The notes under the pieces were generated by a model. It was not told the origin of the DNA, did not search any database, and saw only the letters and a list, made by a program, of their open reading frames with translations. The translations under genes were made by a program, and so were the position numbers. From positions 160,001 to 224,000 of the forward strand of contig OY762911.1 of NCBI GenBank assembly GCA_963666565.1: a stretch of DNA of 64,000 bases, in the 5' to 3' direction. This DNA comes from Thermoanaerobaculia bacterium (GTDB lineage Bacteria > Acidobacteriota > Thermoanaerobaculia > Multivoradales > Multivoraceae). Shown in pieces: positions 13,061-64,000 of the stretch (position 1 is the stretch's first letter; every line of letters begins with the position of its first letter).

Positions 13061-13477
13061 TCAGGTTCTCGGGTCCCAGTCAGGCAGGAGACCGGCGGCA
13101 CGGCAGGTGCGGGCCAGATCCTTGTCCAACGTCGCCAAGGAGGCGTCCAGCCGTTGGGCCAGCTCCAAGTACATCGCATCGTAGATCGACAGGCCGTGCG
13201 CTCTGGCCAGGGCGAGAGTCAGCCCCAAGCGCGGGTCGGTGTCCGTCCGCACCGGCAGGTCTCCCAAGCTGCGCAGGCGTTCGTCGACTTCGTCCGAGCG
13301 AATCCGTCCACTTCGTTCCGCGCCGAGCAAGGCGCTTCGTATTTCGACATGCCAGAGCTGCGGAACCAGCGCCTCCTCGGTCTCAAGCCGCGCCAACGCC
13401 GCGTTCGACAGCGTCTCCTCCTCATCGTCCAGGAGCCACGCCGCCGCCACCGACGCTTCGAGCACGAACCCGGACAC
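13061..13477 (-). CDS. vapC: VapC/PIN-domain toxin
   Basis: FVLEASVA, VPQLWHVE, LSIYDAMYLELA, LATLD; GTG start at 13477 just after antitoxin stop. Confidence 0.85.
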   Translation of the reverse strand: MSGFVLEASVAAAWLLDDEEETLSNAALARLETEEALVPQLWHVEIRSALLGAERSGRIRSDEVDERLRSLGDLPVRTDTDPRLGLTLALARAHGLSIYDAMYLELAQRLDASLATLDKDLARTCRAAGLLPDWDPRT

Positions 13478-13484
13478 ATGACAC

Positions 13485-13745
13485 CTAGCGGCGGCCTTCG
13501 TGAATGGCGGCAACGATCTCCTCGGACGTCATCCGGACGCGTCGCCACTGCCGACGGCGCTTCCGGAAGCCCTCCACAGCCGACTTCCGAGCTTCACGCT
13601 CCTGATTCCGCGCCGGAACCAGATGCGCGATGGCCTGGCCATGACGCGTGATCGCGACCGTCTGGCCGTACTCGACGGCCCGCAAGAGCTCCGCCAAGTG
13701 CGCCTTGGCTTCGGTTGTGGAAACGTCCCGAATGGCACCGGTCAT
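13485..13745 (-). CDS. Phd/YefM-family antitoxin
   Basis: EAKAHLAELLRAVEYGQTVAITRHGQAIAHLVP; directly upstream of PIN toxin. Confidence 0.88.
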   Translation of the reverse strand: MTGAIRDVSTTEAKAHLAELLRAVEYGQTVAITRHGQAIAHLVPARNQEREARKSAVEGFRKRRRQWRRVRMTSEEIVAAIHEGRR

Positions 13746-26085: not shown

Positions 26086-26109
26086 CGCGGTGCGTCGTCC
26101 AGCCCAGCC

Positions 26110-26269
26110 GGGTCAGGAGGGGTCGGCGTCCAGGTGCCTCTGAACGAGCGACGGCCGACGACGTTGCAGTCACCGACACCCAACCGGAGCGAGTGAAGCG
26201 GAGCAAGCGCAACCCTGCCCTTCTCCTCTCGAGCGCGCGCGTCACCTGGGCGCCGACCCCTCCTGACCC
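26110..26269 (+). repeat. Structured intergenic element, diverged copy (27-bp closing stem, 106-nt core)
   Basis: 26110-26136 pairs with 26243-26269 (one G-T); core shares motifs with copies at 48.2 and 52.1 kb. Confidence 0.75.
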
Positions 26270-26309
26270 AAGACGGGCGAGTCCGTCCTCCGCCGCGCCG
26301 GGTGGCGGC

Positions 26310-26376
26310 GGCCTGACGGCCGCCCGTCTTCTCGCCGCCTTCGGCGGCAAGCGGGTCGGAAGACCCGCGCACCCGG
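26310..26376. repeat. REP-like double-hairpin element
   Basis: GCCGCC-TTC-GGCGGC then GCGGGTC-GGAA-GACCCGC-GCACCC; near-identical copies at 38730 and 48434/48520. Confidence 0.85.
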
Positions 26377-38729: not shown

Positions 38730-38797
38730 GGCCTGACGGTCGGTGCGCTTCCTGGCCGCCTCCGGCGGCAGCGGGTCAGAAGACCCGCGCACCCAGC
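38730..38797. repeat. REP-like double-hairpin element
   Basis: GGCCTGACGG...GCCGCCTCCGGCGGC-A-GCGGGTCAGAAGACCCGC-GCACCCAGC. Confidence 0.85.
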
Positions 38798-45898: not shown

Positions 45899-46044
45899 GC
45901 GCGGGAGAACGCCGCTCGCGTGGTATCTTCTCCGGCTGTTTCCAACCCCGGGATCCGTGCCGCGGCACGCGGCCGGCGTCCCGCACAGCCCGAATCGCGC
46001 GGGCCCGGGAGACGGGCCCGCGACCCCTTGCGACCGGAGCGTCG

Positions 46045-48141
46045 ATGCAACTCGAGAACTCGGAACAGATACGCAACCTCGCCGTCGTCGGACACAACGA
46101 CACGGGCAAGACGACCCTGCTCGCCGGCCTGCTCTACACCGGCGGCGTCTTCAACCGGCAGAACCGCGTGGAGGACGGGAACACGGTCACCGACTTCGAC
46201 GACGAGGAGGTCCGGCGCGGCATCTCGATCGGCCTCGCCGTCTGCTACGCGCCCTGGTCGGACGGGGCCGCCAACTGCAAGGTCAACCTGATCGACTGTC
46301 CGGGTTCCGGGATCTTCGTCCACGAGAGCAGCTCCGGCATGCGCGCGGCCGACGCCGCCCTGCTCTGCGTGAACGCGGCCTCGCCGACCCAGGTCATGGC
46401 CGAGAAGGCCTGGGAGATCGCCGGCGAGATGAACCAGCCGGTGATGTTCCACCTGACGAAGATGGACCGCGACAACATCGACTTCGCCGGCTGCATCGCC
46501 GAACTCCAGGAGAACTTCGACCGCATGGCGCTGCCCGTGCAGATACCGATCGGCGACGGCAAGGACTTCACCGGCGTCGTCGACCTGCTGAGCCGCAAGG
46601 CCTACGCGTACGACCGGGACGGCGCCGGCCGCAGCCAGGCGTCCGAGCCGCCGGCGGAACTCGCGGACGAGATCGACGAATGGCGCAACAACCTGACCGA
46701 AGCGGTCGCCGAGAGCGACGACGAGTTGATGGAGGCCTACTTCGAGAACGGCGACTTGACCCGGGAGCAGTTGATCCAGGGGCTGAAGGCAGCGATCCGG
46801 TCCCGCTCCCTGTTTCCGGTCACGATGTCGTCCGGCGCCCACGGCATCGGCAACTCCGCCCTGCTCGACGCGGTGGTCCGGCTGCTGCCCTCGCCGGTCG
46901 ACGCGCCGCCGATTCCCGCCGGCGACCTCGGCGGAGAGCCCGTGGAGCTCGACCGCGGCGAGGAAGCGCCGGTCAGCGCGATCGTCTTCAAGACGATGAA
47001 CGATCCCTTCACCGGCCGCATCTCGCTCCTGCGCGTCGCCGGCGGCAACATGAGTTCGGACACCGTCTACTGGAACGCCGGCCGCGAGGAGGCCGAGCGC
47101 GTCGGCCACCTGATGCACATGCAGGGCAAGACGGGCGAGGACGTCCCCAGGCTGGTCGAGGGCGACATCGGCGGCGTCGCCAAGCTGAAATCGAGCGCCA
47201 CCGGCGATTCGCTCACGAGCCGGGAGCGGCCGGTGAAGCTCGACTTCCCCACTGCCCCGGTCGCGGCGATCTCGTTCGCGATCGAGCCGAAGACGAAGGG
47301 CGACGAGGAGAAGATCGGCGAGGCGGTGTCGCGCCTGCTCGAGGAGGATCCCAGCCTGCACGCCGGCCGCGACCCGCAGACCGGCGAGTTCCTGCTCTCC
47401 GGCGCCGGCCAGCTTCACGTCGAGATCGCCGTGTCCAAGCTGAAGAGCCGGTCGAAGGTCGAGGTCATCCTGCACCCGCCGAAGGTGCCCTACCGGGAGG
47501 CGATCCGGAGGACCGCGGTCGGCCACGGCCGGCACAAGAAGCAGAGCGGCGGCCGCGGCCAGTTCGCGGACTGCACGATTACGATGGAACCCGTCGCCAC
47601 CCCCGAGGAGTACGAGTTCGTCGACGAGATCTTCGGCGGCTCCATCCCCCAGAACTACCGCCCGGCGGTCGAGAAGGGCCTGCTCGAAGCCGCCGGCCGC
47701 GGCTATCTGGCGGGCTACCCGGTCGGCAACTTCCGCGTCCGGCTGCAGGACGGCAAGTTCCACGATGTCGACTCGTCGGAGATGGCCTTCAAGGTCGCCG
47801 GCTCGCTCGCCTTCAAGGACGCGATGGCCAAGGCCGCGCCGACGCTCCTGGAACCCGTCATGCAGGTCGACATCAACACGACGGAAGACTTCATGGGCGA
47901 CATCATGAGCGACCTCTCCTCACGCCGGGGCCGCCCCCAGGGCATGGAGGCCAAGGGCAACGCCCAGATCGTCAAGGCCACCGTCCCCATGGCCGAAATG
48001 CTGACCTACGCCCCGGCCCTTCGCTCCATGACCCAGGGCCGCTCCAGTTTCACGATGGCCTTCTCCCACTACGAGGAGGTCCCGCGCCAGATCCAGGAGA
48101 AGATCATCGCCGAGGCGAAGCGGGAGGAAGAGGACGGATAG
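46045..48141 (+). CDS. fusA2: Elongation factor G paralogue (EF-G2 type)
   Basis: GHNDTGKTT, RGISI, DCPGSG, TKMD, KKQSGGRGQF, HDVDSSEMAF, LRSMTQGR. Confidence 0.9.
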   Translation: MQLENSEQIRNLAVVGHNDTGKTTLLAGLLYTGGVFNRQNRVEDGNTVTDFDDEEVRRGISIGLAVCYAPWSDGAANCKVNLIDCPGSGIFVHESSSGMRAADAALLCVNAASPTQVMAEKAWEIAGEMNQPVMFHLTKMDRDNIDFAGCIAELQENFDRMALPVQIPIGDGKDFTGVVDLLSRKAYAYDRDGAGRSQASEPPAELADEIDEWRNNLTEAVAESDDELMEAYFENGDLTREQLIQGLKAAIRSRSLFPVTMSSGAHGIGNSALLDAVVRLLPSPVDAPPIPAGDLGGEPVELDRGEEAPVSAIVFKTMNDPFTGRISLLRVAGGNMSSDTVYWNAGREEAERVGHLMHMQGKTGEDVPRLVEGDIGGVAKLKSSATGDSLTSRERPVKLDFPTAPVAAISFAIEPKTKGDEEKIGEAVSRLLEEDPSLHAGRDPQTGEFLLSGAGQLHVEIAVSKLKSRSKVEVILHPPKVPYREAIRRTAVGHGRHKKQSGGRGQFADCTITMEPVATPEEYEFVDEIFGGSIPQNYRPAVEKGLLEAAGRGYLAGYPVGNFRVRLQDGKFHDVDSSEMAFKVAGSLAFKDAMAKAAPTLLEPVMQVDINTTEDFMGDIMSDLSSRRGRPQGMEAKGNAQIVKATVPMAEMLTYAPALRSMTQGRSSFTMAFSHYEEVPRQIQEKIIAEAKREEEDG

Positions 48142-48152
48142 CGCGCCGGCAG

Positions 48153-48222
48153 CGTGACGGCGCAGGCGCAGCGGCGCAGGCGCAGCGGCGGAGGCGTAGC
48201 GGCGGAGGCGTGACGGCGGAGG
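48153..48222 (+). repeat. Five tandem 14-bp units (CGYRRCGGCGSAGG)
   Basis: cgtgacggcgcagg/cgcagcggcgcagg/cgcagcggcggagg/cgtagcggcggagg/cgtgacggcggagg. Confidence 0.85.
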
Positions 48223-48230
48223 ACGTTCCC

Positions 48231-48424
48231 GCCGGCTTTCGGTTCCGAGGAGAGGGGTCCCAGGGGACGCTCGCACTCTCTTGGTAGAGGGGAACGGGAG
48301 TGCTCGCTTCGGTCGGCTGCGTTTCACGTCGGCGTCGGTTTCGGGTACGACGCCGGGAGTCACTTGCCTCCAGCCCCCTGGGACCCTCTCCTCGGGACCT
48401 GCGCCGGCTGGACGTCGTCGTCGG
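48231..48424 (-). repeat. Structured intergenic element, left flank of the R-M cassette
   Basis: 48241-48266 pairs with 48375-48399; reverse complement aligns with 52109-52296. Confidence 0.9.
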
Positions 48425-48433
48425 GGTGCGTGG

Positions 48434-48580
48434 GCTGGGTGCGCGGGTCTTCCGACCCGCTGACGCCGAAGGCGGCCAGAAGAAGAAGCGCGCCGGGCCG
48501 CCAGGCCGGCACCGCTCTGGCTGGGTGCGCGGGTCTTCTGACCCGCTGACGCCGAAGGCGGCCAGAGAAGAACGCGCCGA
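48434..48580. repeat. Two tandem REP-like elements (period 86 bp)
   Basis: GCTGGGTGCGCGGGTCTTCYGACCCGCTGACGCCGAAGGCGGCCAGA at 48434 and 48520. Confidence 0.92.
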
Positions 48581-48616
48581 CAAGTTCCATGCACATGCCG
48601 TTGCTACGATCCATGC

Positions 48617-50245
48617 ATGGTCGTGGAGCCCAGCCACGCGGCGGCCGCCGGCGGCTTCATCCCCCCTCCAGCGCCGGGGGAGCGACCGACCGAGTACGCC
48701 GACCGAATCGGCGAGTACCACGTCGCCGGCAGGACGGAAGCGCACCGAAAGCAGCACGGGCTCTACCTGACGCCTGTCGCGGCGGCCGACTTCATGGCGG
48801 GTCAGATCCGGGCCGCAGGCGACCGCCTTCGGGTTCTGGATCCTGCTGCGGGCGCGGGCATCCTGTGCTGTGCGGCGGTCGAGGCGCTCGCGGGACGCGA
48901 CCGGCCACCGGGCCGGATCGAGCTGGTCGCCTACGAAGTGGACGCCGAGTTGATGGCGCCGCTGGAGGCGGTCCTCGGCTACCTCAAGGAATGGTGTCGC
49001 GACGAGCAAGGGATCAGGCTCGAAGCGCGAATCGAGTCAACGGACTTCGTGCTGGCGCACGCCGAGGCACTTCGGCGTGAAGACAGCCTGCTGCCCGGCA
49101 ACTCGGACGACCCGGAGTTCGACGTCGCCATCTCCAACCCGCCGTACTTCAAGATCAACAAGAGCGACCCGAGGGCGGTTCTCGCTTCAAGCGTAGTCCA
49201 CGGTCAGCCGAACATCTATGCCCTGTTCATGGCGGTCAGCGCGGCCCTGGTCCGTCCCGGCGGCGACTTCATTTCCATCACGCCCCGAAGCTTCACGTCC
49301 GGCCTCTACTTCCGGCGGTTCCGCAGGGTCTTCTTCAGCCTTGTTCGGCCCACCCTGGTGCATGCGTTCGGATCGCGCCGGGAGGCGTTTCAACGGGACG
49401 ATGTCCTTCAGGAAAACGTCATTCTCCACGGCGTTCGGCTGAACTCCCAGCCCCAAGATCGTCAGGCTCCCCTGGTGATCTCCAGCAGCCGTGGCGTTGG
49501 CGATCTGGATGACTCCAACCGGCGCACGACTCCGCTTCAAGCGGCCCTCGATCTCGACGACCGTGACCGCGTACTCCGACTTCCCGTCTCCGAGGAGGAC
49601 GCTCGCGTTCTTGACCTGGTCGACTCATGGCCGAACACCTTGGCCAGCCTTGGCCTCGCCATCTCTACCGGGCCCGTGGTCCCCTTCCGTGCGAGGGACC
49701 TGGTCGAGCGCGAAGGCCAGGTGCCCGAGTCGCACGTTCCCCTCCTCTGGATGAACCATGTGCAGCCAATGCAGGTCACCTGGCCATTGCATCGGCACAA
49801 GCCGGAGTACATCAAGCGTGAGGGCGCCGAGAAACTCCTCCTGTCGAACCGCAACTACGTTCTCCTGCGCCGCTTCACTGCGAAGGAGGAAGTTCGGAGG
49901 CTCTCGGCGGCGCCCTACGTGGCCCAGTCGATGCCCATTCCCCAAGTGGGCCTGGAGAACCACTTGAACTATGTCCACCGGCCGGCCGGCTCTCTCACCG
50001 ACGAAGAGGCATGGGGTCTGGCGGCGCTCTACAACAGCCGCCTGCTCGACACCTACTTCAGGTGCCTGAACGGGCACACCCAGGTGAACGCGACGGAGCT
50101 ACGCGCCATGCCGCTGCCCGCAAGGGACCTCATCGTCGAACTCGGCGAGCAAGTCCAGCAACTCGCCAACCCGATCGACCATCTCGACCCGCTGATAGCG
50201 GACATGCTGTCAGCCGACCTCCCTCGGAAGCGCACCGTTGGTTAG
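48617..50245 (+). CDS. N6-adenine DNA methyltransferase (BsuBI/PstI, Eco57I-like gamma class)
   Basis: GLYLTP, LDPAAGAG motif I, SNPPY motif IV, QENVI, STGPVV.FR, ENHLN, NGHTQVNATELR. Confidence 0.92.
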   Translation: MVVEPSHAAAAGGFIPPPAPGERPTEYADRIGEYHVAGRTEAHRKQHGLYLTPVAAADFMAGQIRAAGDRLRVLDPAAGAGILCCAAVEALAGRDRPPGRIELVAYEVDAELMAPLEAVLGYLKEWCRDEQGIRLEARIESTDFVLAHAEALRREDSLLPGNSDDPEFDVAISNPPYFKINKSDPRAVLASSVVHGQPNIYALFMAVSAALVRPGGDFISITPRSFTSGLYFRRFRRVFFSLVRPTLVHAFGSRREAFQRDDVLQENVILHGVRLNSQPQDRQAPLVISSSRGVGDLDDSNRRTTPLQAALDLDDRDRVLRLPVSEEDARVLDLVDSWPNTLASLGLAISTGPVVPFRARDLVEREGQVPESHVPLLWMNHVQPMQVTWPLHRHKPEYIKREGAEKLLLSNRNYVLLRRFTAKEEVRRLSAAPYVAQSMPIPQVGLENHLNYVHRPAGSLTDEEAWGLAALYNSRLLDTYFRCLNGHTQVNATELRAMPLPARDLIVELGEQVQQLANPIDHLDPLIADMLSADLPRKRTVG

Positions 50246-51203
50246 TATTGAGGAAGCGCGCAGAATCCTCCGAGCCTTGGGGATGCCGTCACCGCAGTCG
50301 AATCGGATGGCCGGCCTGACTCTGCTTGCGCTGTGCGGGCTGGCGCCGGGCGGCTCCTGGTCGAACGCGTCCCGCAGCCGAAGGACGGTGACCAAGGGCA
50401 TCATGGACCACGCCCGCGACCACTTTGGCCAAGGCTACGCCCCAAACACCCGGGAGACGTTCCGCCGCCAGGTACTTCACCAGTTCGTGCTCGGGGGCAT
50501 CGCCGAGCACAACCCCTTCGAACCTGACCTGCCAACCAACAGTCCCCGCTCGCACTACGCCATCAGCGAGGCCGCGCTCCGGGTCGTCCAGTCCTTCGGC
50601 ACCCCGGAGTGGGAACGAAACGCGGTCGAGTTCCGCCGCGACCTCCCAGCTTGGCTCGCAGAGTACGAAGACTCGCGATCCCGGAATCTGGTCCCCATCC
50701 GCTTCCCCGACGGCCAGGAGGTGCGACTCTCGCCAGGCTCGCACAACGAGCTTCAGAAGGCAGTGATCGAGGACTTCGCTCCGCGCTTCGCCCCTGGCGC
50801 CCATGTGCTCTACCTCGGCGACACCGCCAGAAAGGACCTCCACGTCGACCAGCAGCGCCTGCTTGACGTCGGCCTCCCGCTCACGGAGCACGACAAACTG
50901 CCCGACATCGTCCTCCACGACCGTGCCCGCGACAGGCTGTTCCTAATCGAGGCCGTAACGTCACACGGTCCAGTCGACCGAAAGCGCCTCGCAGAGTTCG
51001 AGGGCCTCCTGCACTCCTGTCGCGCCAAGCCCGTCTACGTGAGCGCCTTCCCGGACTTCAACGAGTTCCGCAAGCACCTGACCTCCATTGCCTGGGAGAC
51101 CGACGTCTGGCTCGCCGAGGTGCCCGGCCACCTGATCCACTTCGACGGCGACAAGTTCCTGGATCCGGTGGTCCAGGATCAAGGAGCAAGCACAGGACGA
51201 TGA
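50238..51203 (+). CDS. BsuBI/PstI-family type II restriction endonuclease
   Basis: YAPNTRETFRRQ.LHQF, TNSP, LSPG.HN.LQ..IE.FAPRF, KLPD, IEAVTSHGP, IAWET.VW; TTG start overlapping MTase end. Confidence 0.92.
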   Translation: MVSIEEARRILRALGMPSPQSNRMAGLTLLALCGLAPGGSWSNASRSRRTVTKGIMDHARDHFGQGYAPNTRETFRRQVLHQFVLGGIAEHNPFEPDLPTNSPRSHYAISEAALRVVQSFGTPEWERNAVEFRRDLPAWLAEYEDSRSRNLVPIRFPDGQEVRLSPGSHNELQKAVIEDFAPRFAPGAHVLYLGDTARKDLHVDQQRLLDVGLPLTEHDKLPDIVLHDRARDRLFLIEAVTSHGPVDRKRLAEFEGLLHSCRAKPVYVSAFPDFNEFRKHLTSIAWETDVWLAEVPGHLIHFDGDKFLDPVVQDQGASTGR

Positions 51204-52051
51204 CGAACCTCGTAGCGCCGCCACCGTTCACGTTTCTCGTGCCTGAGTCCCGCCAGGAGCCGATCATCGTCGAACAGAGTCACTCCGCGCTGAGGATGGC
51301 GATCGTCGAGCGCTCCCAGGTGGCGGCCACCGTACGCGACTGGGCAACCTTGTCCGGAGTCTACGTGTTGATCTGCAACGCTGGCGAGGATGGTAAATGG
51401 CACGCCTACGTCGGCGAGGCGTCAGGAGGGCTGGGAAACCGACTGCGCACTCACAACTCCCAACGTCCTGACTGGAATCGGGCCCTGCTCGTCCACCGCG
51501 ACGCGACACGCGGCTTCACCTCTACCGAAGCCGCATGGCTGGAGGGTGAACTCCACGACCACCTCGGAAACGCCGCGAACGTCCGGCTCCAGAACAAGAA
51601 ACAGCCTAGGGACAGGACGCTTCCAAGGCACGATCAGGCTCCGCTTAGCACCGTCGTTGGAGTCGTGGTCGCGGTGCTGCGAGCAATCGGGTGCGATCTC
51701 GGGCCCCTCAGCGGGAAGGATCGGGCCATGGCCGAAGAACGGCTGGCACCGCAAGCGCGACGCCCCAAATCACCCAAGATCCAGCTTCGGGATCTCCTGG
51801 AACAGAACTTCACACCGCTTGGCACGGTCCTCGTGTCGGTGAGTCCATCGTGGCCGGCGACTGCGACGGTCCTTCCCGACGGCAGAATCGACTTTGGGGG
51901 AAGGGCCTACAAGACCCCTTCGGCCGCCGGCAAGGCGGCCCGGAAAGGGAAGGCGACGAACGGCTGGGACTTCTGGGCAGTTGAAACGCCGCAAGGCCTC
52001 GTACGACTCTCCGAGCTGCGCTCCCGGTGCGCCGAAGGTGCCGCCGTCTGA
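51200..52051 (+). CDS. GIY-YIG nuclease fused to C-terminal RAMA/DUF4357-like domain
   Basis: GVYVL...AYVGE...NRL.TH...DW, WLE, N; C-terminal TPSAAG...TNGWDFW. Confidence 0.78.
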   Translation: MTNLVAPPPFTFLVPESRQEPIIVEQSHSALRMAIVERSQVAATVRDWATLSGVYVLICNAGEDGKWHAYVGEASGGLGNRLRTHNSQRPDWNRALLVHRDATRGFTSTEAAWLEGELHDHLGNAANVRLQNKKQPRDRTLPRHDQAPLSTVVGVVVAVLRAIGCDLGPLSGKDRAMAEERLAPQARRPKSPKIQLRDLLEQNFTPLGTVLVSVSPSWPATATVLPDGRIDFGGRAYKTPSAAGKAARKGKATNGWDFWAVETPQGLVRLSELRSRCAEGAAV

Positions 52052-52108
52052 TCCGCTCACGGACGCAACGGCAAACCAAGTCAGTGGGCACTGCCGCTGT
52101 CAGGGTAG

Positions 52109-52303
52109 CCGACGACGCCCAGCCAGCAGCGGGCCGGAGGAGGGGGTCCCTGCGGGCTGGAGGCAAGTGACTCCCGACGCCGTGCCCGAAGCCTCCGCCG
52201 ACGTGAAACGCAGCCGACCGAAGCGAGCACTTCCCTTTCATCTACTCAGAAAGTGCGAGCGTCCGCAGGGACCCCCTCCTTCGGCCCGCTGCTGGCGGGT
52301 GTC
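52109..52303 (+). repeat. Structured intergenic element, right flank of the R-M cassette
   Basis: 34-bp stem 52122-52155/52263-52296 (one G-T), 107-nt core; inverted relative to the 48.2 kb copy. Confidence 0.9.
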
Positions 52304-52322
52304 ACCAACGCCGCCATCCGGC

Positions 52323-52368
52323 CGCCGAAAGCGTCCAGAAACACGCGCCGGCCGAAGGCCGGCACCGC
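52323..52368. repeat. Partial REP-like copy
   Basis: CGCCGAAAGCGTCCAGAA...GCGCCGG...GGCCGGCACCGC resembles 48464-48515. Confidence 0.6.
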
Positions 52369-52731
52369 TTACTCGTCGGCGTCGACGAACTCGATGACGG
52401 CGAGCTCGGCGGCGTCGCCCTTGCGGGGGCCGAGCTTGGTGATGCGAAGGTAGCCGCCGGGGCGGTCCGCGTAGCGGGGGGCGATCTCGTCGAAGAGCTT
52501 CTTCACGTGAGCGCGGTTGGGGAGCCAGCGGCGGACGAGGCGACGGGCGTGGACGGTGTCCTCGCGGCCGCGGGTGATCATCCTCTCGGCGACCGGCCGC
52601 AGGGCCTTGGCCTTGGCCAGCGTGGTCCGGATGCGGCCGTGCTCGACCAGCGACGCAAGCTGGTTGCGGAACATCGCCCGGCGGTGGGCCGTCGTCCGGC
52701 CGAGTTTCTTGTAGCCGATTCCGTGACGCAT
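52369..52731 (-). CDS. rplQ: 50S ribosomal protein L17
   Basis: MRH...KLGRTTAHRRAM, RPGGYLRI, RKGDAA. Confidence 0.97.
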   Translation of the reverse strand: MRHGIGYKKLGRTTAHRRAMFRNQLASLVEHGRIRTTLAKAKALRPVAERMITRGREDTVHARRLVRRWLPNRAHVKKLFDEIAPRYADRPGGYLRITKLGPRKGDAAELAVIEFVDADE

Positions 52732-52775
52732 CTTCGCTCCTTCCCGTGGAAGCTCGGAGACGGTGCGGCGGCCTC

Positions 52776-53771
52776 CTAGGCCTGCACCTCGCCGCTCTCC
52801 GCGTTCTCCGGAACCTCCATGCCGAAGGACAGTCCCATCTTGTCGAGCACCTCCTGGATTTCCTCCAGGGACTTCTGCCCGAAGTTCTTGGTCTCCAGCA
52901 TCTCCTTCTCGCTGCGCACCACCAGGTCCCCGACCGTGTTGATGTTGGCGTTCCTCAGGCAGTTCGCGGACCGGACGCTCAGCTCGAGTTCGTCGATCGC
53001 CTTCTGCAGCAGGACGCTCACGTCGCCGCCGTCGATCTCCTCCTCTTCCGCGACGTCCGCGACGAGGCTCTCCTCCGCGTTGATGAAGATCGTCAGGTGG
53101 TCGCGCAGCAAAGTGCCGGCGCGCGACACCGCCTCTTCGGGGGTGACCGTCCCGTCCGTCCAGACTTCCACGATCAGCCGCTCGTAGTCCGTGGTGCGGC
53201 CGAGTCGAGCCGCCTCCACCTGGTAGTTCACCCGCTTTACCGGACTGTGTACCGAGTCGAGCGGAATCCAGCCGATTCCCATCGACGGCTCGAGGTTGCG
53301 GTCCGCGCTGATGTAGCCGCGGCCGTTCCTGACCTGCGCCTCGATGCGGAGGCGGCCCCGTTCGTTGAGCGTCGCGACCTTGCTCGCCGCGTCCCGGATC
53401 TCGACGCTGGCGTCGGTGTCGAAGTCGCCCGCCGTCACTTCCCGCGGGCCGGTGACGTCCAGCGAGATCACACGGGGCGAGCCGTCGGAAGAACGCAGCG
53501 GCACCTGCTTCAGGTTCAGAATGATGTCCGTCACGTCCTCGACGACTCCTTCGATCGACGAGAACTCGTGCAGCGCGCCATCGATGCGCACCGCCGTGAT
53601 CGCGGGACCTTCGATCGCCGCCAGCAGACTGCGGCGCAGTGCGTTGCCGACCGTGGCGCCGAAGCCGCGTTCGAACGGCTGCGCCGAGAACTTTCCGTAG
53701 CTGTCGGTCAGGGTCTCAGTGTCGATTTCGACGCGCTTGGGGCGTTGGAATCCCTTCCAGAGCATGTTCAC
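52776..53771 (-). CDS. rpoA: RNA polymerase alpha subunit
   Basis: PFERGFG.T.GNALRR.LL, HEFS, LELSVRSANCL, NFGQKSL. Confidence 0.98.
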   Translation of the reverse strand: MNMLWKGFQRPKRVEIDTETLTDSYGKFSAQPFERGFGATVGNALRRSLLAAIEGPAITAVRIDGALHEFSSIEGVVEDVTDIILNLKQVPLRSSDGSPRVISLDVTGPREVTAGDFDTDASVEIRDAASKVATLNERGRLRIEAQVRNGRGYISADRNLEPSMGIGWIPLDSVHSPVKRVNYQVEAARLGRTTDYERLIVEVWTDGTVTPEEAVSRAGTLLRDHLTIFINAEESLVADVAEEEEIDGGDVSVLLQKAIDELELSVRSANCLRNANINTVGDLVVRSEKEMLETKNFGQKSLEEIQEVLDKMGLSFGMEVPENAESGEVQA

Positions 53772-63191: not shown

Positions 63192-64000
63192 CTACTTGCG
63201 GCGTCCCCGCCGCCGGACGATCATGCCGGTCGTGCGCTTGTTGCTGCGTGTCTTGTAGCCCTTGGTCGGCTTGCCCCAGGGCGTCGTGGGATGCCGCCCG
63301 CCCGACGCCTTGCCCTCGCCGCCGCCCATCGGATGGTCGACCGGGTTCATCGATACGCCGCGGTTGTGCGGCCGCCGGCCCCGCCAGCGGTTCCGGCCCG
63401 CCTTGCCGAGCGAGATGTTCGAGTGCTCCGAGTTGCCGACCTGGCCGATCGTGGCCGAGCAGTCGATGTGGACGCGGCGCACCTCTCCCGAGGGAAGCCG
63501 GACCTGGGCGTAGGACCCCTCCTTCGCCATCAACTGGGCGCCCGCGCCGGCGCTGCGGACCATCTGGCCGCCGGCGCCGATCTTCAGTTCGATGTTGTGG
63601 ACGATCGTGCCGAGGGGGATGAACCGGATCGGCAGGCAGTTGCCGACGTCGATCTCCGCTCCTTCGCCGGACTGCACCGTGGCGCCGACCTTGAGTCCCT
63701 GGGGATGGAGGATGTAGCGCTTCTCGCCGTCGGCGTAGTGCAGCAGCGAGATCAGCGCGGTCCGGTTCGGGTCGTACTCGATGCTGGCCACCTTCGCCGG
63801 CACGCCGACCTTGTCGCGCCGGAAGTCGATCCGCCGGTAGCGGCGCTTGTGGCCGCCGCCGCGGAACCAGATCGTCTGCCAGCCCTTGTTGTTCCGGCCG
63901 CTGATCCGCTTCTTGCCTTCGACCAGAGGCTTGTGCGGCCGGTTCGTCGTGACCTCTTCCCGCCGGGCGTACTCCTGGAAGCGGCTCGCGGGATTCGTCG
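63192..64000 (-). CDS. rplB: 50S ribosomal protein L2, 5'-truncated by window edge
   Basis: [31 protein letters not shown]. Confidence 0.98.

Follow-up and report, generated by a model that had tools for sequence, protein, structure and literature searches.

Background

In Pseudomonas aeruginosa, core defence hotspots (cDHS) combine conserved core flanks with defence content that varies among close relatives, and with empty sites; they often have no mobility gene, and transfer by recombination in the flanks is suggested (Johnson et al. 2023, PMC10250203). Restriction-modification (R-M) units may be flanked by inverted repeats or inserted with long target duplication; in the transposon-like ones, the inverted repeats are unique to the unit and find no counterpart when the genome with the empty site is aligned (Furuta, Abe and Kobayashi 2010, PMC2853133). 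Here we analyse a stretch of 64,000 nt from contig OY762911.1 of a Thermoanaerobaculia bacterium (assembly GCA_963666565.1), called the window below, in which a three-gene defence cassette lies between two inverted copies of a structured intergenic repeat of ~215 nt that we name E. One copy adjoins the gene of an EF-G family GTPase and the other adjoins rplQ. The two copies are old residents of this site, and the interval between them is a variable core defence hotspot.

Compared with the cDHS (PMC10250203), the EF-G/rplQ interval is similar in having core flanks, varying defence cargo, an empty site and no mobility gene found. It differs in being bounded by the end of a ribosomal-protein operon on one side and by an EF-G paralogue on the other, each with a copy of the structured repeat, and the comparison covers five genomes, unlike the thousands of that study (PMC10250203). 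With the R-M units of PMC2853133, the locus shares an R-M operon, inverted repeats and the lack of a linked transposase; unlike in the transposon-like class described there, the repeats pre-exist at the empty site, which places the locus in the class of insertion between repeated sequences. It is a counter-example in which transposon-looking repeats around a defence cassette are shown to be resident by one empty-site comparison, and it reveals that an uncultured Acidobacteriota clade has a defence hotspot where a ribosomal-protein operon ends.

Imperfect intergenic palindromes of 100-200 nt near gene ends include ERIC/IRU, Yersinia YPAL, Neisseria Correia and REP/BIME repeats, and such repeats are often co-transcribed, with orientation-dependent effects on mRNA. 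E resembles these families in its intergenic placement as an imperfect palindrome, although neither sequence nor Rfam ties it to them; it differs in its larger invariant non-palindromic core (~110 nt), its low copy number and the lack of any sign of recent transposition. From REP/BIME repeats with RAYT it is set apart by its length, ~215 nt rather than palindromic units of 20-40 nt that often form inverted doublets, and by the absence of a Y1/HUH transposase among the scanned open reading frames (ORFs). Integron mobilization units and the integrons of Acinetobacter flanked by miniature inverted-repeat transposable elements (MITEs) occur at different sites, have target duplications and are mobilised in trans. 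Like such MITE-bounded units, our locus has two short non-coding copies that bracket accessory genes with no transposase in cis, but the E copies are fixed at one orthologous site. Unlike in an integron attC array, where directly oriented sites separate cassettes beside an intI gene, all seven E pairs are inverted and none is direct, and no integrase was found in the scanned ORFs. The defence-island hotspots of E. coli reportedly offer a further comparison.

A resident pair of elements beside EF-G and rplQ

The earlier note on this DNA, made from the letters alone, had described an inverted pair of structured elements of ~190 nt next to fusA2 (the EF-G family gene) and rplQ, with just two REP-like units and three genes between the copies, and this description is borne out (Table 1). 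In a repeat search of the window, the arms 48293-48420 and 52110-52237 are 128 nt long and 86% complementary, and a second pair of arms lies at 48245-48288 and 52241-52284. The reverse complement of the left (EF-G-side) copy aligns with the right (rplQ-side) copy at 86% mean column identity (MAFFT). Identical blocks of 36 and 22 nt each occur exactly twice in the 64 kb, once per copy and on opposite strands, none of 100 dinucleotide shuffles reaches two matches to the blocks, and a 13-nt block is likewise identical between both copies. Each copy is in itself a long hairpin; minimum free energies (MFE) for the two strands of the right copy are -128.5 and -131.9 kcal/mol (z = -9.0 and -7.5; 0/200 shuffles fold equally well). 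A profile built from 19 copies gives both elements an approximate extent slightly wider than the coordinates proposed earlier (Table 1).

The E family was sampled with an exact 21-nt core word in 185,579 species genomes. The scan gave 15 loci (labelled L001-L015; L012 and L013, which overlap on the same contig, count as one) in seven Acidobacteriota metagenome-assembled genomes (MAGs) labelled as Holophagales, Thermoanaerobaculia, Acidobacteriota or Candidatus Multivorans. Using blastn and an nhmmer profile, we identified 19 full-length copies (two in the window and 17 in the loci), two diverged full-length copies (window 26092-26294 and L015:3534-3733) and two partial ones (L005:31-157 and L010:2424-2484). 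Searching with an exact 21-mer means that this sample is smaller than the true family, and that the conservation of the core is partly built in.

The EF-G/rplQ interval was compared in five genomes, namely that of the window, RHO1_bin_33 (L002), SB0665_bin_19 (L010 and L008) and the genomes of L014 and L006. By local alignment, the rpoA-rplQ region and the EF-G gene of the window are ~90-91% identical to those of the four other genomes, which are 93-99% identical among themselves. L002 has no cargo, and its genes and elements run rpoA, rplQ, E, 336 nt, E, EF-G. Both elements have the same orientation and the same positions beside EF-G and rplQ as in the window, the flanks are 88-89% identical to those of the window, and the homology ends at the inner edges of the elements (blastn). 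SB0665_bin_19 has both elements on one contig, 6,047 nt apart, beside EF-G (L010) and rplQ (L008). L006 and L014 carry the rplQ-side copy, so that orthologues of the right element are present in L002, L006, L008 and L014 and the element is kept whatever the cargo.

In a maximum-likelihood tree of the 19 copies, the copies group by site, not by genome. The EF-G-site copies of three genomes form a clade with 99/99 support, in which the orthologues from L002 and L010 join the left element of the window; support is 100/98 for the coxM-site copies, 100/99 for L001 with L015, and 88/88 for the copies at the acyl-CoA dehydrogenase site. As the E copies are orthologous by site across genomes, the elements were in place before these lineages split. 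The two elements are old, orthologous residents of this site, and the pair exists without cargo.

Variable cargo between the same flanks

The empty site of L002 consists of the 336-nt spacer. The window carries genes for a DNA methyltransferase (MTase), a restriction endonuclease (REase) and a PDC-S14 protein, and L014 has the 3' part of a PDC-S14 gene, 83% identical in nucleotide sequence to that of the window, after which its contig ends. The cargo of SB0665_bin_19 was read on either side of a 2,256-nt unretrieved middle: the L010 part holds a 247-aa ORF without a family match, then PDC-M48B (E = 2.6e-114), and the L008 part a PstI-like REase 83% identical to that of the window, then ~1 kb of family-less ORFs. 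L006 has unrelated ORFs, for which Pfam, PADLOC and NCBIfam gave no match. L006 and L014 are 98.7% identical in rpoA-rplQ, yet their cargo differs; they are identical through the element and ~65 nt beyond it, and then diverge completely. The common cargo genes (83%) are more diverged than the flanks (~90%), and they are not distributed as the relationships of the flanks would predict. With one empty site and four of differing content among five genomes, the EF-G/rplQ interval is a variable core defence hotspot.

Empty sites and different cargo between fusA2 and rplQ in relatives were what the earlier note had proposed to look for, and both were found. Its idea of a repeat-defined hotspot survives in weak form only. 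Variable defence cargo does lie between the same flanks, but the enzyme acting on the elements that this idea invoked has a counterpart neither in fixed breakpoints nor in any HUH/RAYT, IS200 or integrase gene among the scanned ORFs.

The PDC-M48B match (L010:3308-4021) is a protein with a metallo-beta-lactamase fold, a candidate system component. Cargo with no Pfam, PADLOC or NCBIfam match extends over L006:1-1908 and L008:834-1905, for example the 390-aa ORF at L006:275-1444, and neither the cargo nor the family-less ORFs received an NCBIfam name above the cut-off. The matchless ORFs at L006:275-1444, L010:2583-3323 and L008:969-1400 are candidate new defence genes. The GC content of the L006, L008 and L010 interiors is 0.61-0.64.

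Cargo boundaries and mobility genes

The cargo breakpoints lie at different distances inside the element ends: ~0-16 nt in the window, ~65 nt in L006/L014 and ~300 nt in SB0665_bin_19, where the first ~300 nt inside the EF-G-side element are homologous to the empty-site spacer. The latter genome also has a scar (L010:2399-2482), in which 25 nt of an rplQ-type outer end run straight into the final 58 nt of an EF-G-type element. The bases after the scar are the same as window 48425-48440, and its 25 nt are found again (23/25) where the full rplQ-side element of L008 begins, which leaves the island between the copies of a short direct duplication. At ~25 nt of element sequence, this duplication is shorter than the 30-bp criterion of PMC2853133.

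The scar fits recombination or illegitimate joining, not cut-and-paste. On the simplest reading, an island abutting the EF-G-side element, as in the window, would have entered an empty-type site through a single homologous crossover, on the rplQ side, and an illegitimate join within the resident element. Conversely, the window layout could have arisen from one like that of SB0665_bin_19 by deletion between two direct element parts. At another site, in L003 (RHO1_bin_33), the coxM-side element was lost by internal deletion, and the enclosed TPR gene stays. Comparison of L003:1000-1290 with L007:1780-2330 reveals a left-arm remnant of ~37 nt, in flanks otherwise nearly identical to those of SB0666_bin_22.

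No transposase, integrase or HUH gene was detected among the 56 window ORFs (8 + 5 + 43), which agrees with the earlier statement that transposases and integrases are absent, or among 51 ORFs (34 + 17) in the 15 loci with 2-kb flanks. A RAYT or IS200-family tnpA gene beside the copies, suggested earlier as a possible source of activity in trans, was not found in the ORFs scanned in the window and the 15 loci. There was no parent insertion sequence with matching ends in the window or the loci, and no short direct repeat flanking the whole unit stood out in the alignments, whose outer ends are fuzzy and old and in which no dedicated search for such repeats was made.

Structure and distribution of E

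The consensus fold predicted by RNAalifold for the 19 copies has a long outer stem with a branched core. The 53 predicted pairs are paired in 95.5% of cells across the copies, and 19 of them have changes on both sides, compared with 12.8 +/- 1.3 in shuffles (0/500 reach the observed number) and with 2-8 pairs when the partners are slid by 1-3 columns. All but one of the covarying pairs (18/19) belong to the outer stem of ~30 pairs, the last to a core hairpin. The core of ~110 nt is near-invariant and non-palindromic: in the block 48359-48376, which is outside the search word, 17/18 positions are invariant in 19/19 copies; at the other position, 17 copies have C and two have T. A covarying stem around an invariant core, across paralogues that separated before these genomes did, speaks for selection acting on every copy and against the decay of a selfish repeat. 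A coding role for E was considered and rejected in an informal test, in which one frame was read by eye: a frame-shifting indel separates the window copies, and the substitutions are not mainly synonymous.

At the gathering score, the sole Rfam match in the whole 64 kb is tRNA-Pro, with none to E, and a search of 48100-48650 at E-values up to 10 returned three chance-level matches only. The right element had no match in plasmid and phage collections (blastn, distant mode). A literature search on MITEs in sponge-associated Acidobacteria gave nothing relevant, which is not proof that E is unpublished. E is a well-supported new structured motif, as modelled from the alignment, with no Rfam family. 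Within the broad class of structured intergenic repeats it is a member not described before, judging by Rfam and this limited literature search.

E recurs at at least six sites besides the EF-G/rplQ interval. The third, diverged copy of the window and L015:3534-3733 have derived core features in common in the alignment, which suggests a second E subfamily. In four of the 15 loci a copy lies within ~610 nt of a contig end, in three of these within ~130 nt, suggesting that E breaks assemblies and that copy numbers in MAGs are underestimates. The picture of an abundant, randomly oriented element, which would have made the bracketing a matter of chance, does not hold here, as the family is low-copy, with three copies in 64 kb, and non-randomly oriented.

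Position relative to genes and a possible role in RNA

The sense strand of E is, by our definition, that of the gene whose stop codon lies before it. All 20 copies with a usable flank are located 0-95 nt past a stop codon in the sense orientation. The sense strand has the lower MFE in 20/21 copies, with a mean difference of -14.9 kcal/mol (Wilcoxon p = 9e-5, an optimistic value since the copies are related). Orientation by itself is largely uninformative: between convergent genes either way is sense, and a symmetric pair always has the same end outward. All seven pairs, at four sites, are inverted with the same end outward. The three informative, co-directional contexts are all in sense orientation: E comes after an outer-membrane protein gene and before a sulfatase gene in L004, after coxM and before the TPR gene in L007 and L012, and after an uncharacterised gene and before a 409-aa ORF in L015. 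No consensus terminator was called between rplQ and E in L002, L006 and L014, where E begins 26-34 nt past the stop. A hairpin ~45 nt past the element in L014/L006 looks terminator-like by eye; the consensus scan did not call it, and we do not rely on it.

The transcript of the upstream gene would end in E, which would form the covarying stem of ~30 pairs (more where single-sequence folds take in the tails) with the invariant core as its cap. By analogy with REP/ERIC-type repeats, and not with a transposon end, E might serve as a 3'-end stabiliser, processing site or insulator. We propose such a co-transcribed 3'-end RNA element tentatively, as a real possibility that falls somewhat short of being probable. 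With its fixed place behind such central genes as rplQ, E lends itself to testing in metatranscriptomes that already exist.

Interpretation of the locus

We consider it probable that the E pair consists of vertically inherited residents and that the interval between them is a permissive spot for the gain, replacement and loss of defence genes. One copy stands just after EF-G and one just after rplQ, and the family is found in a clade of Acidobacteriota (Holophagales/Thermoanaerobaculia MAGs); as EF-G and rplQ converge, the two copies are inverted. The cargo would move by ordinary homologous recombination anchored in the conserved flanks (EF-G, E and the ribosomal operon), in combination with illegitimate joins and with deletions between element parts.

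Several observations weigh against this interpretation, including the RNA role of E. Pair partners are sisters across sites, the rplQ-site with the EF-G-site copies (94/94) and the coxM-site with the acyl-CoA dehydrogenase-site copies (89/90), which suggests that the members of each pair originated together, as a unit or through a local inverted duplication, an outcome that a simple model of one element per gene end does not predict. The pairs enclose genes at three sites, and the same end outward is also expected of a symmetric mobile unit, so that pairs add little and only ~3 independent co-directional cases bear on orientation. The third window copy stands downstream of a DeoC-family aldolase gene; it is 95 nt away from this, its presumed gene, and the convergent patatin-like gene stops 7 nt from it. 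In the window a consensus terminator stands between rplQ and E, and that copy is perhaps poorly transcribed from rplQ. The helix gives no strand call either (13 G-U and 14 A-C cells in the outer stem), and the opposite strand also yields a consensus fold, at -70.9 compared with -81.1 kcal/mol. The core helices other than the covarying hairpin are invariant, so covariation neither supports nor contradicts them, and sampling by an exact 21-mer inflates the apparent conservation of the core and undercounts the family.

Some of these observations are shared by an alternative that we regard as unlikely, in which E pairs are docking platforms, that is, folded single-strand DNA sites for a recombinase encoded elsewhere that inserts or exchanges cassettes between the members of a pair; this is the strong form of the hotspot idea of the earlier note. 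The uniform outward end in 7/7 pairs at four sites, the sister relationship of pair partners at two of the three testable sites and the fast cargo turnover would all be in keeping with it, as would the better folding of one strand, which single-strand recognition would need. The pairs enclose defence cargo (EF-G/rplQ), a TPR gene (L007, L012) or the 409-aa ORF (L015), and the GC content at third codon positions of the enclosed genes is 0.76-0.79, below the 0.86-0.95 of their neighbours. However, the cargo boundaries are not fixed relative to E (~0-16, 65 and 300 nt), partnerless and cargo-free copies are conserved at orthologous sites (L009/L011; L004), and the TPR gene persists in L003 after the deletion of one element. 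Moreover, no recombinase was found among the scanned ORFs of the 64 kb or the locus flanks, and no target duplications were seen. It is a shade more doubtful still that E pairs would represent a new kind of cassette-docking slot for accessory genes, most of them for defence, functionally analogous to an integron platform and made of inverted structured sites with no linked integrase.

We find it quite improbable that E is a selfish MITE family whose copies landed on both sides of the cassette by chance. The long terminal inverted arms (a paired stem of ~30 bp in every copy), the dispersed copies, the existence of subfamilies, the loss of one copy by deletion and the breaking of assemblies at E (4/15 loci near a contig end) are features that such a family might show, but there is no insertion polymorphism, since every site common to two genomes has either a copy or a deletion scar. 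The sole presence/absence difference is the internal deletion with the left-arm remnant (L003 compared with L007). The near-invariant core and the covarying stem imply selection on each copy, just three copies occur in the 64 kb of the window, and at this site the pair is fixed, with the rplQ-side copy in all five genomes, which excludes chance co-insertion around the cargo.

The least credible reading is the composite, non-autonomous transposon suggested by the earlier note, with the elements as terminal inverted repeats that arrived together with the R-M cassette: inverted repeats around R-M genes with no transposase do resemble the transposon-like R-M units of PMC2853133, but this reading is contradicted by the alignment of both repeats with the empty-site genome L002. 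Against it, too, are the clustering of copies by site and their orthology across genomes and the recurrence of the repeats at at least six other sites; none of the other 21 copies or fragments (17 full-length, two diverged and two partial) adjoins this cassette at another site. A short direct repeat flanking the unit was not identified in the alignments, in which no dedicated search for one was made.

Genes and small repeats of the window

Table 1. Features of the EF-G/rplQ interval and its surroundings in the window (element limits are approximate)
Feature	Position	Strand	Evidence
Third, diverged copy of E	26092..26294	-	nhmmer E = 8.8e-8, profile positions 4-204; MFE -117.7 kcal/mol, same long outer stem
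EF-G family GTPase gene (fusA2 of the earlier note)	45957..48141	+	Pfam GTP_EFTU, EF-G_D2, EFG_III, EFG_IV, EFG_C
14-nt tandem repeat, 4.6 copies	48158..48222	+	TRF score 88, 92% matches
Left structured element (EF-G side)	48214..48424	+ (sense strand +)	nhmmer E = 7.6e-55; inverted repeat with right copy
Two 48-nt REP-like units	48433-48480, 48519-48566	+	Repeat search; blastn, 4 copies in window
Predicted Eco57I-like type II N6-adenine DNA MTase	48617..50245	+	Pfam Eco57I, N6_Mtase; PADLOC MTase_II E = 1e-104
Predicted BsuBI/PstI-family type II REase	50238..51203	+	Pfam BsuBI_PstI_RE E = 3e-57, its HTH domain E = 2e-38; PADLOC REase_II E = 1.5e-102
RAMA-domain protein, PADLOC PDC-S14	51200..52051	+	PDC-S14 E = 5e-85; Pfam RAMA E = 3.5e-16
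Right structured element (rplQ side)	52100..52313	- (sense strand -)	nhmmer E = 2.9e-59
Intrinsic-terminator-like hairpin with T-rich tail	52345..52365	-	Consensus scan; between rplQ stop and right element
rplQ (52369-52731) and rpoA (52776-53771)	52369..53771	-	Pfam Ribosomal_L17, RNA_pol_A domains

The three cassette genes form an operon with overlapping stops and starts, the REase gene overlapping the MTase stop by 8 nt. Judged by its domains, the cassette is an ordinary type II R-M system of the PstI family with a candidate defence gene, PDC-S14. Both Pfam matches of the REase (BsuBI_PstI_RE and the N-terminal HTH) are above the cut-off, and the REase adjoins an N6-adenine MTase; its gene is 83% identical in nucleotide sequence to L008:11-826. 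The PDC-S14 hidden Markov model matches residues 9-279 of 283, and this gene is 83% identical to L014:2246-2665. Among the gene labels proposed earlier, MTase, REase and RAMA hold, whereas the GIY-YIG label is weak, the N-terminal match in the PDC-S14 protein being below threshold (Pfam E = 0.037, 14.7 bits compared with a cut-off of 22.6). A PDB sequence search with this protein gave only a weak match, to the C-terminal (RAMA) region of CcrM. GC content was dropped as a mark of foreign origin for the window cassette, as its values of 0.63-0.67 are not below those of the rpoA region (0.64-0.68).

On the left flank, the start of the EF-G gene is uncertain (45736 or 45957), and the gene is 91% identical in nucleotide sequence to its orthologues in L002 and L010. 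The 14-nt tandem repeat is directly 5' of the left element and repeats the 5' tail motif of that element. On the right flank, rplQ and rpoA are the end of the ribosomal-protein operon, and ribosomal genes run out to the right end of the window at 64000. The terminator-like hairpin beyond rplQ is found in the window only and is missing at that position in the L014/L006 alignment.

The region of the rplQ terminator (52337-52369) has a 73%-identical direct copy across the cassette, at 48484-48516, after the first 48-nt REP-like unit. The four copies of the 48-nt repeat in the window (48433-48480 and 48519-48566 on the plus strand, 38752-38797 and 26327-26374 on the minus strand) have 93-98% identity and are all intergenic; three are directly beside copies of the large element, and a fragment is found at L009:2214-2239. 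Their orientation relative to the upstream gene is inconsistent.

The palindrome CTGCAG is not depleted in the window, with 28 occurrences observed and 33.8 expected. CAGCTG, a PvuII-type palindrome, occurs three times compared with 19.3 expected (maximal-order Markov estimate), and five other GC-rich palindromes including CTGCAG are near or moderately below expectation (observed/expected 0.76-0.95). The scarcity of CAGCTG may reflect another restriction system elsewhere in the genome. Finally, a gene with a PIN domain (VapC-like) at 13064-13528 on the minus strand, with space for a small upstream partner, is probably part of a toxin-antitoxin pair.

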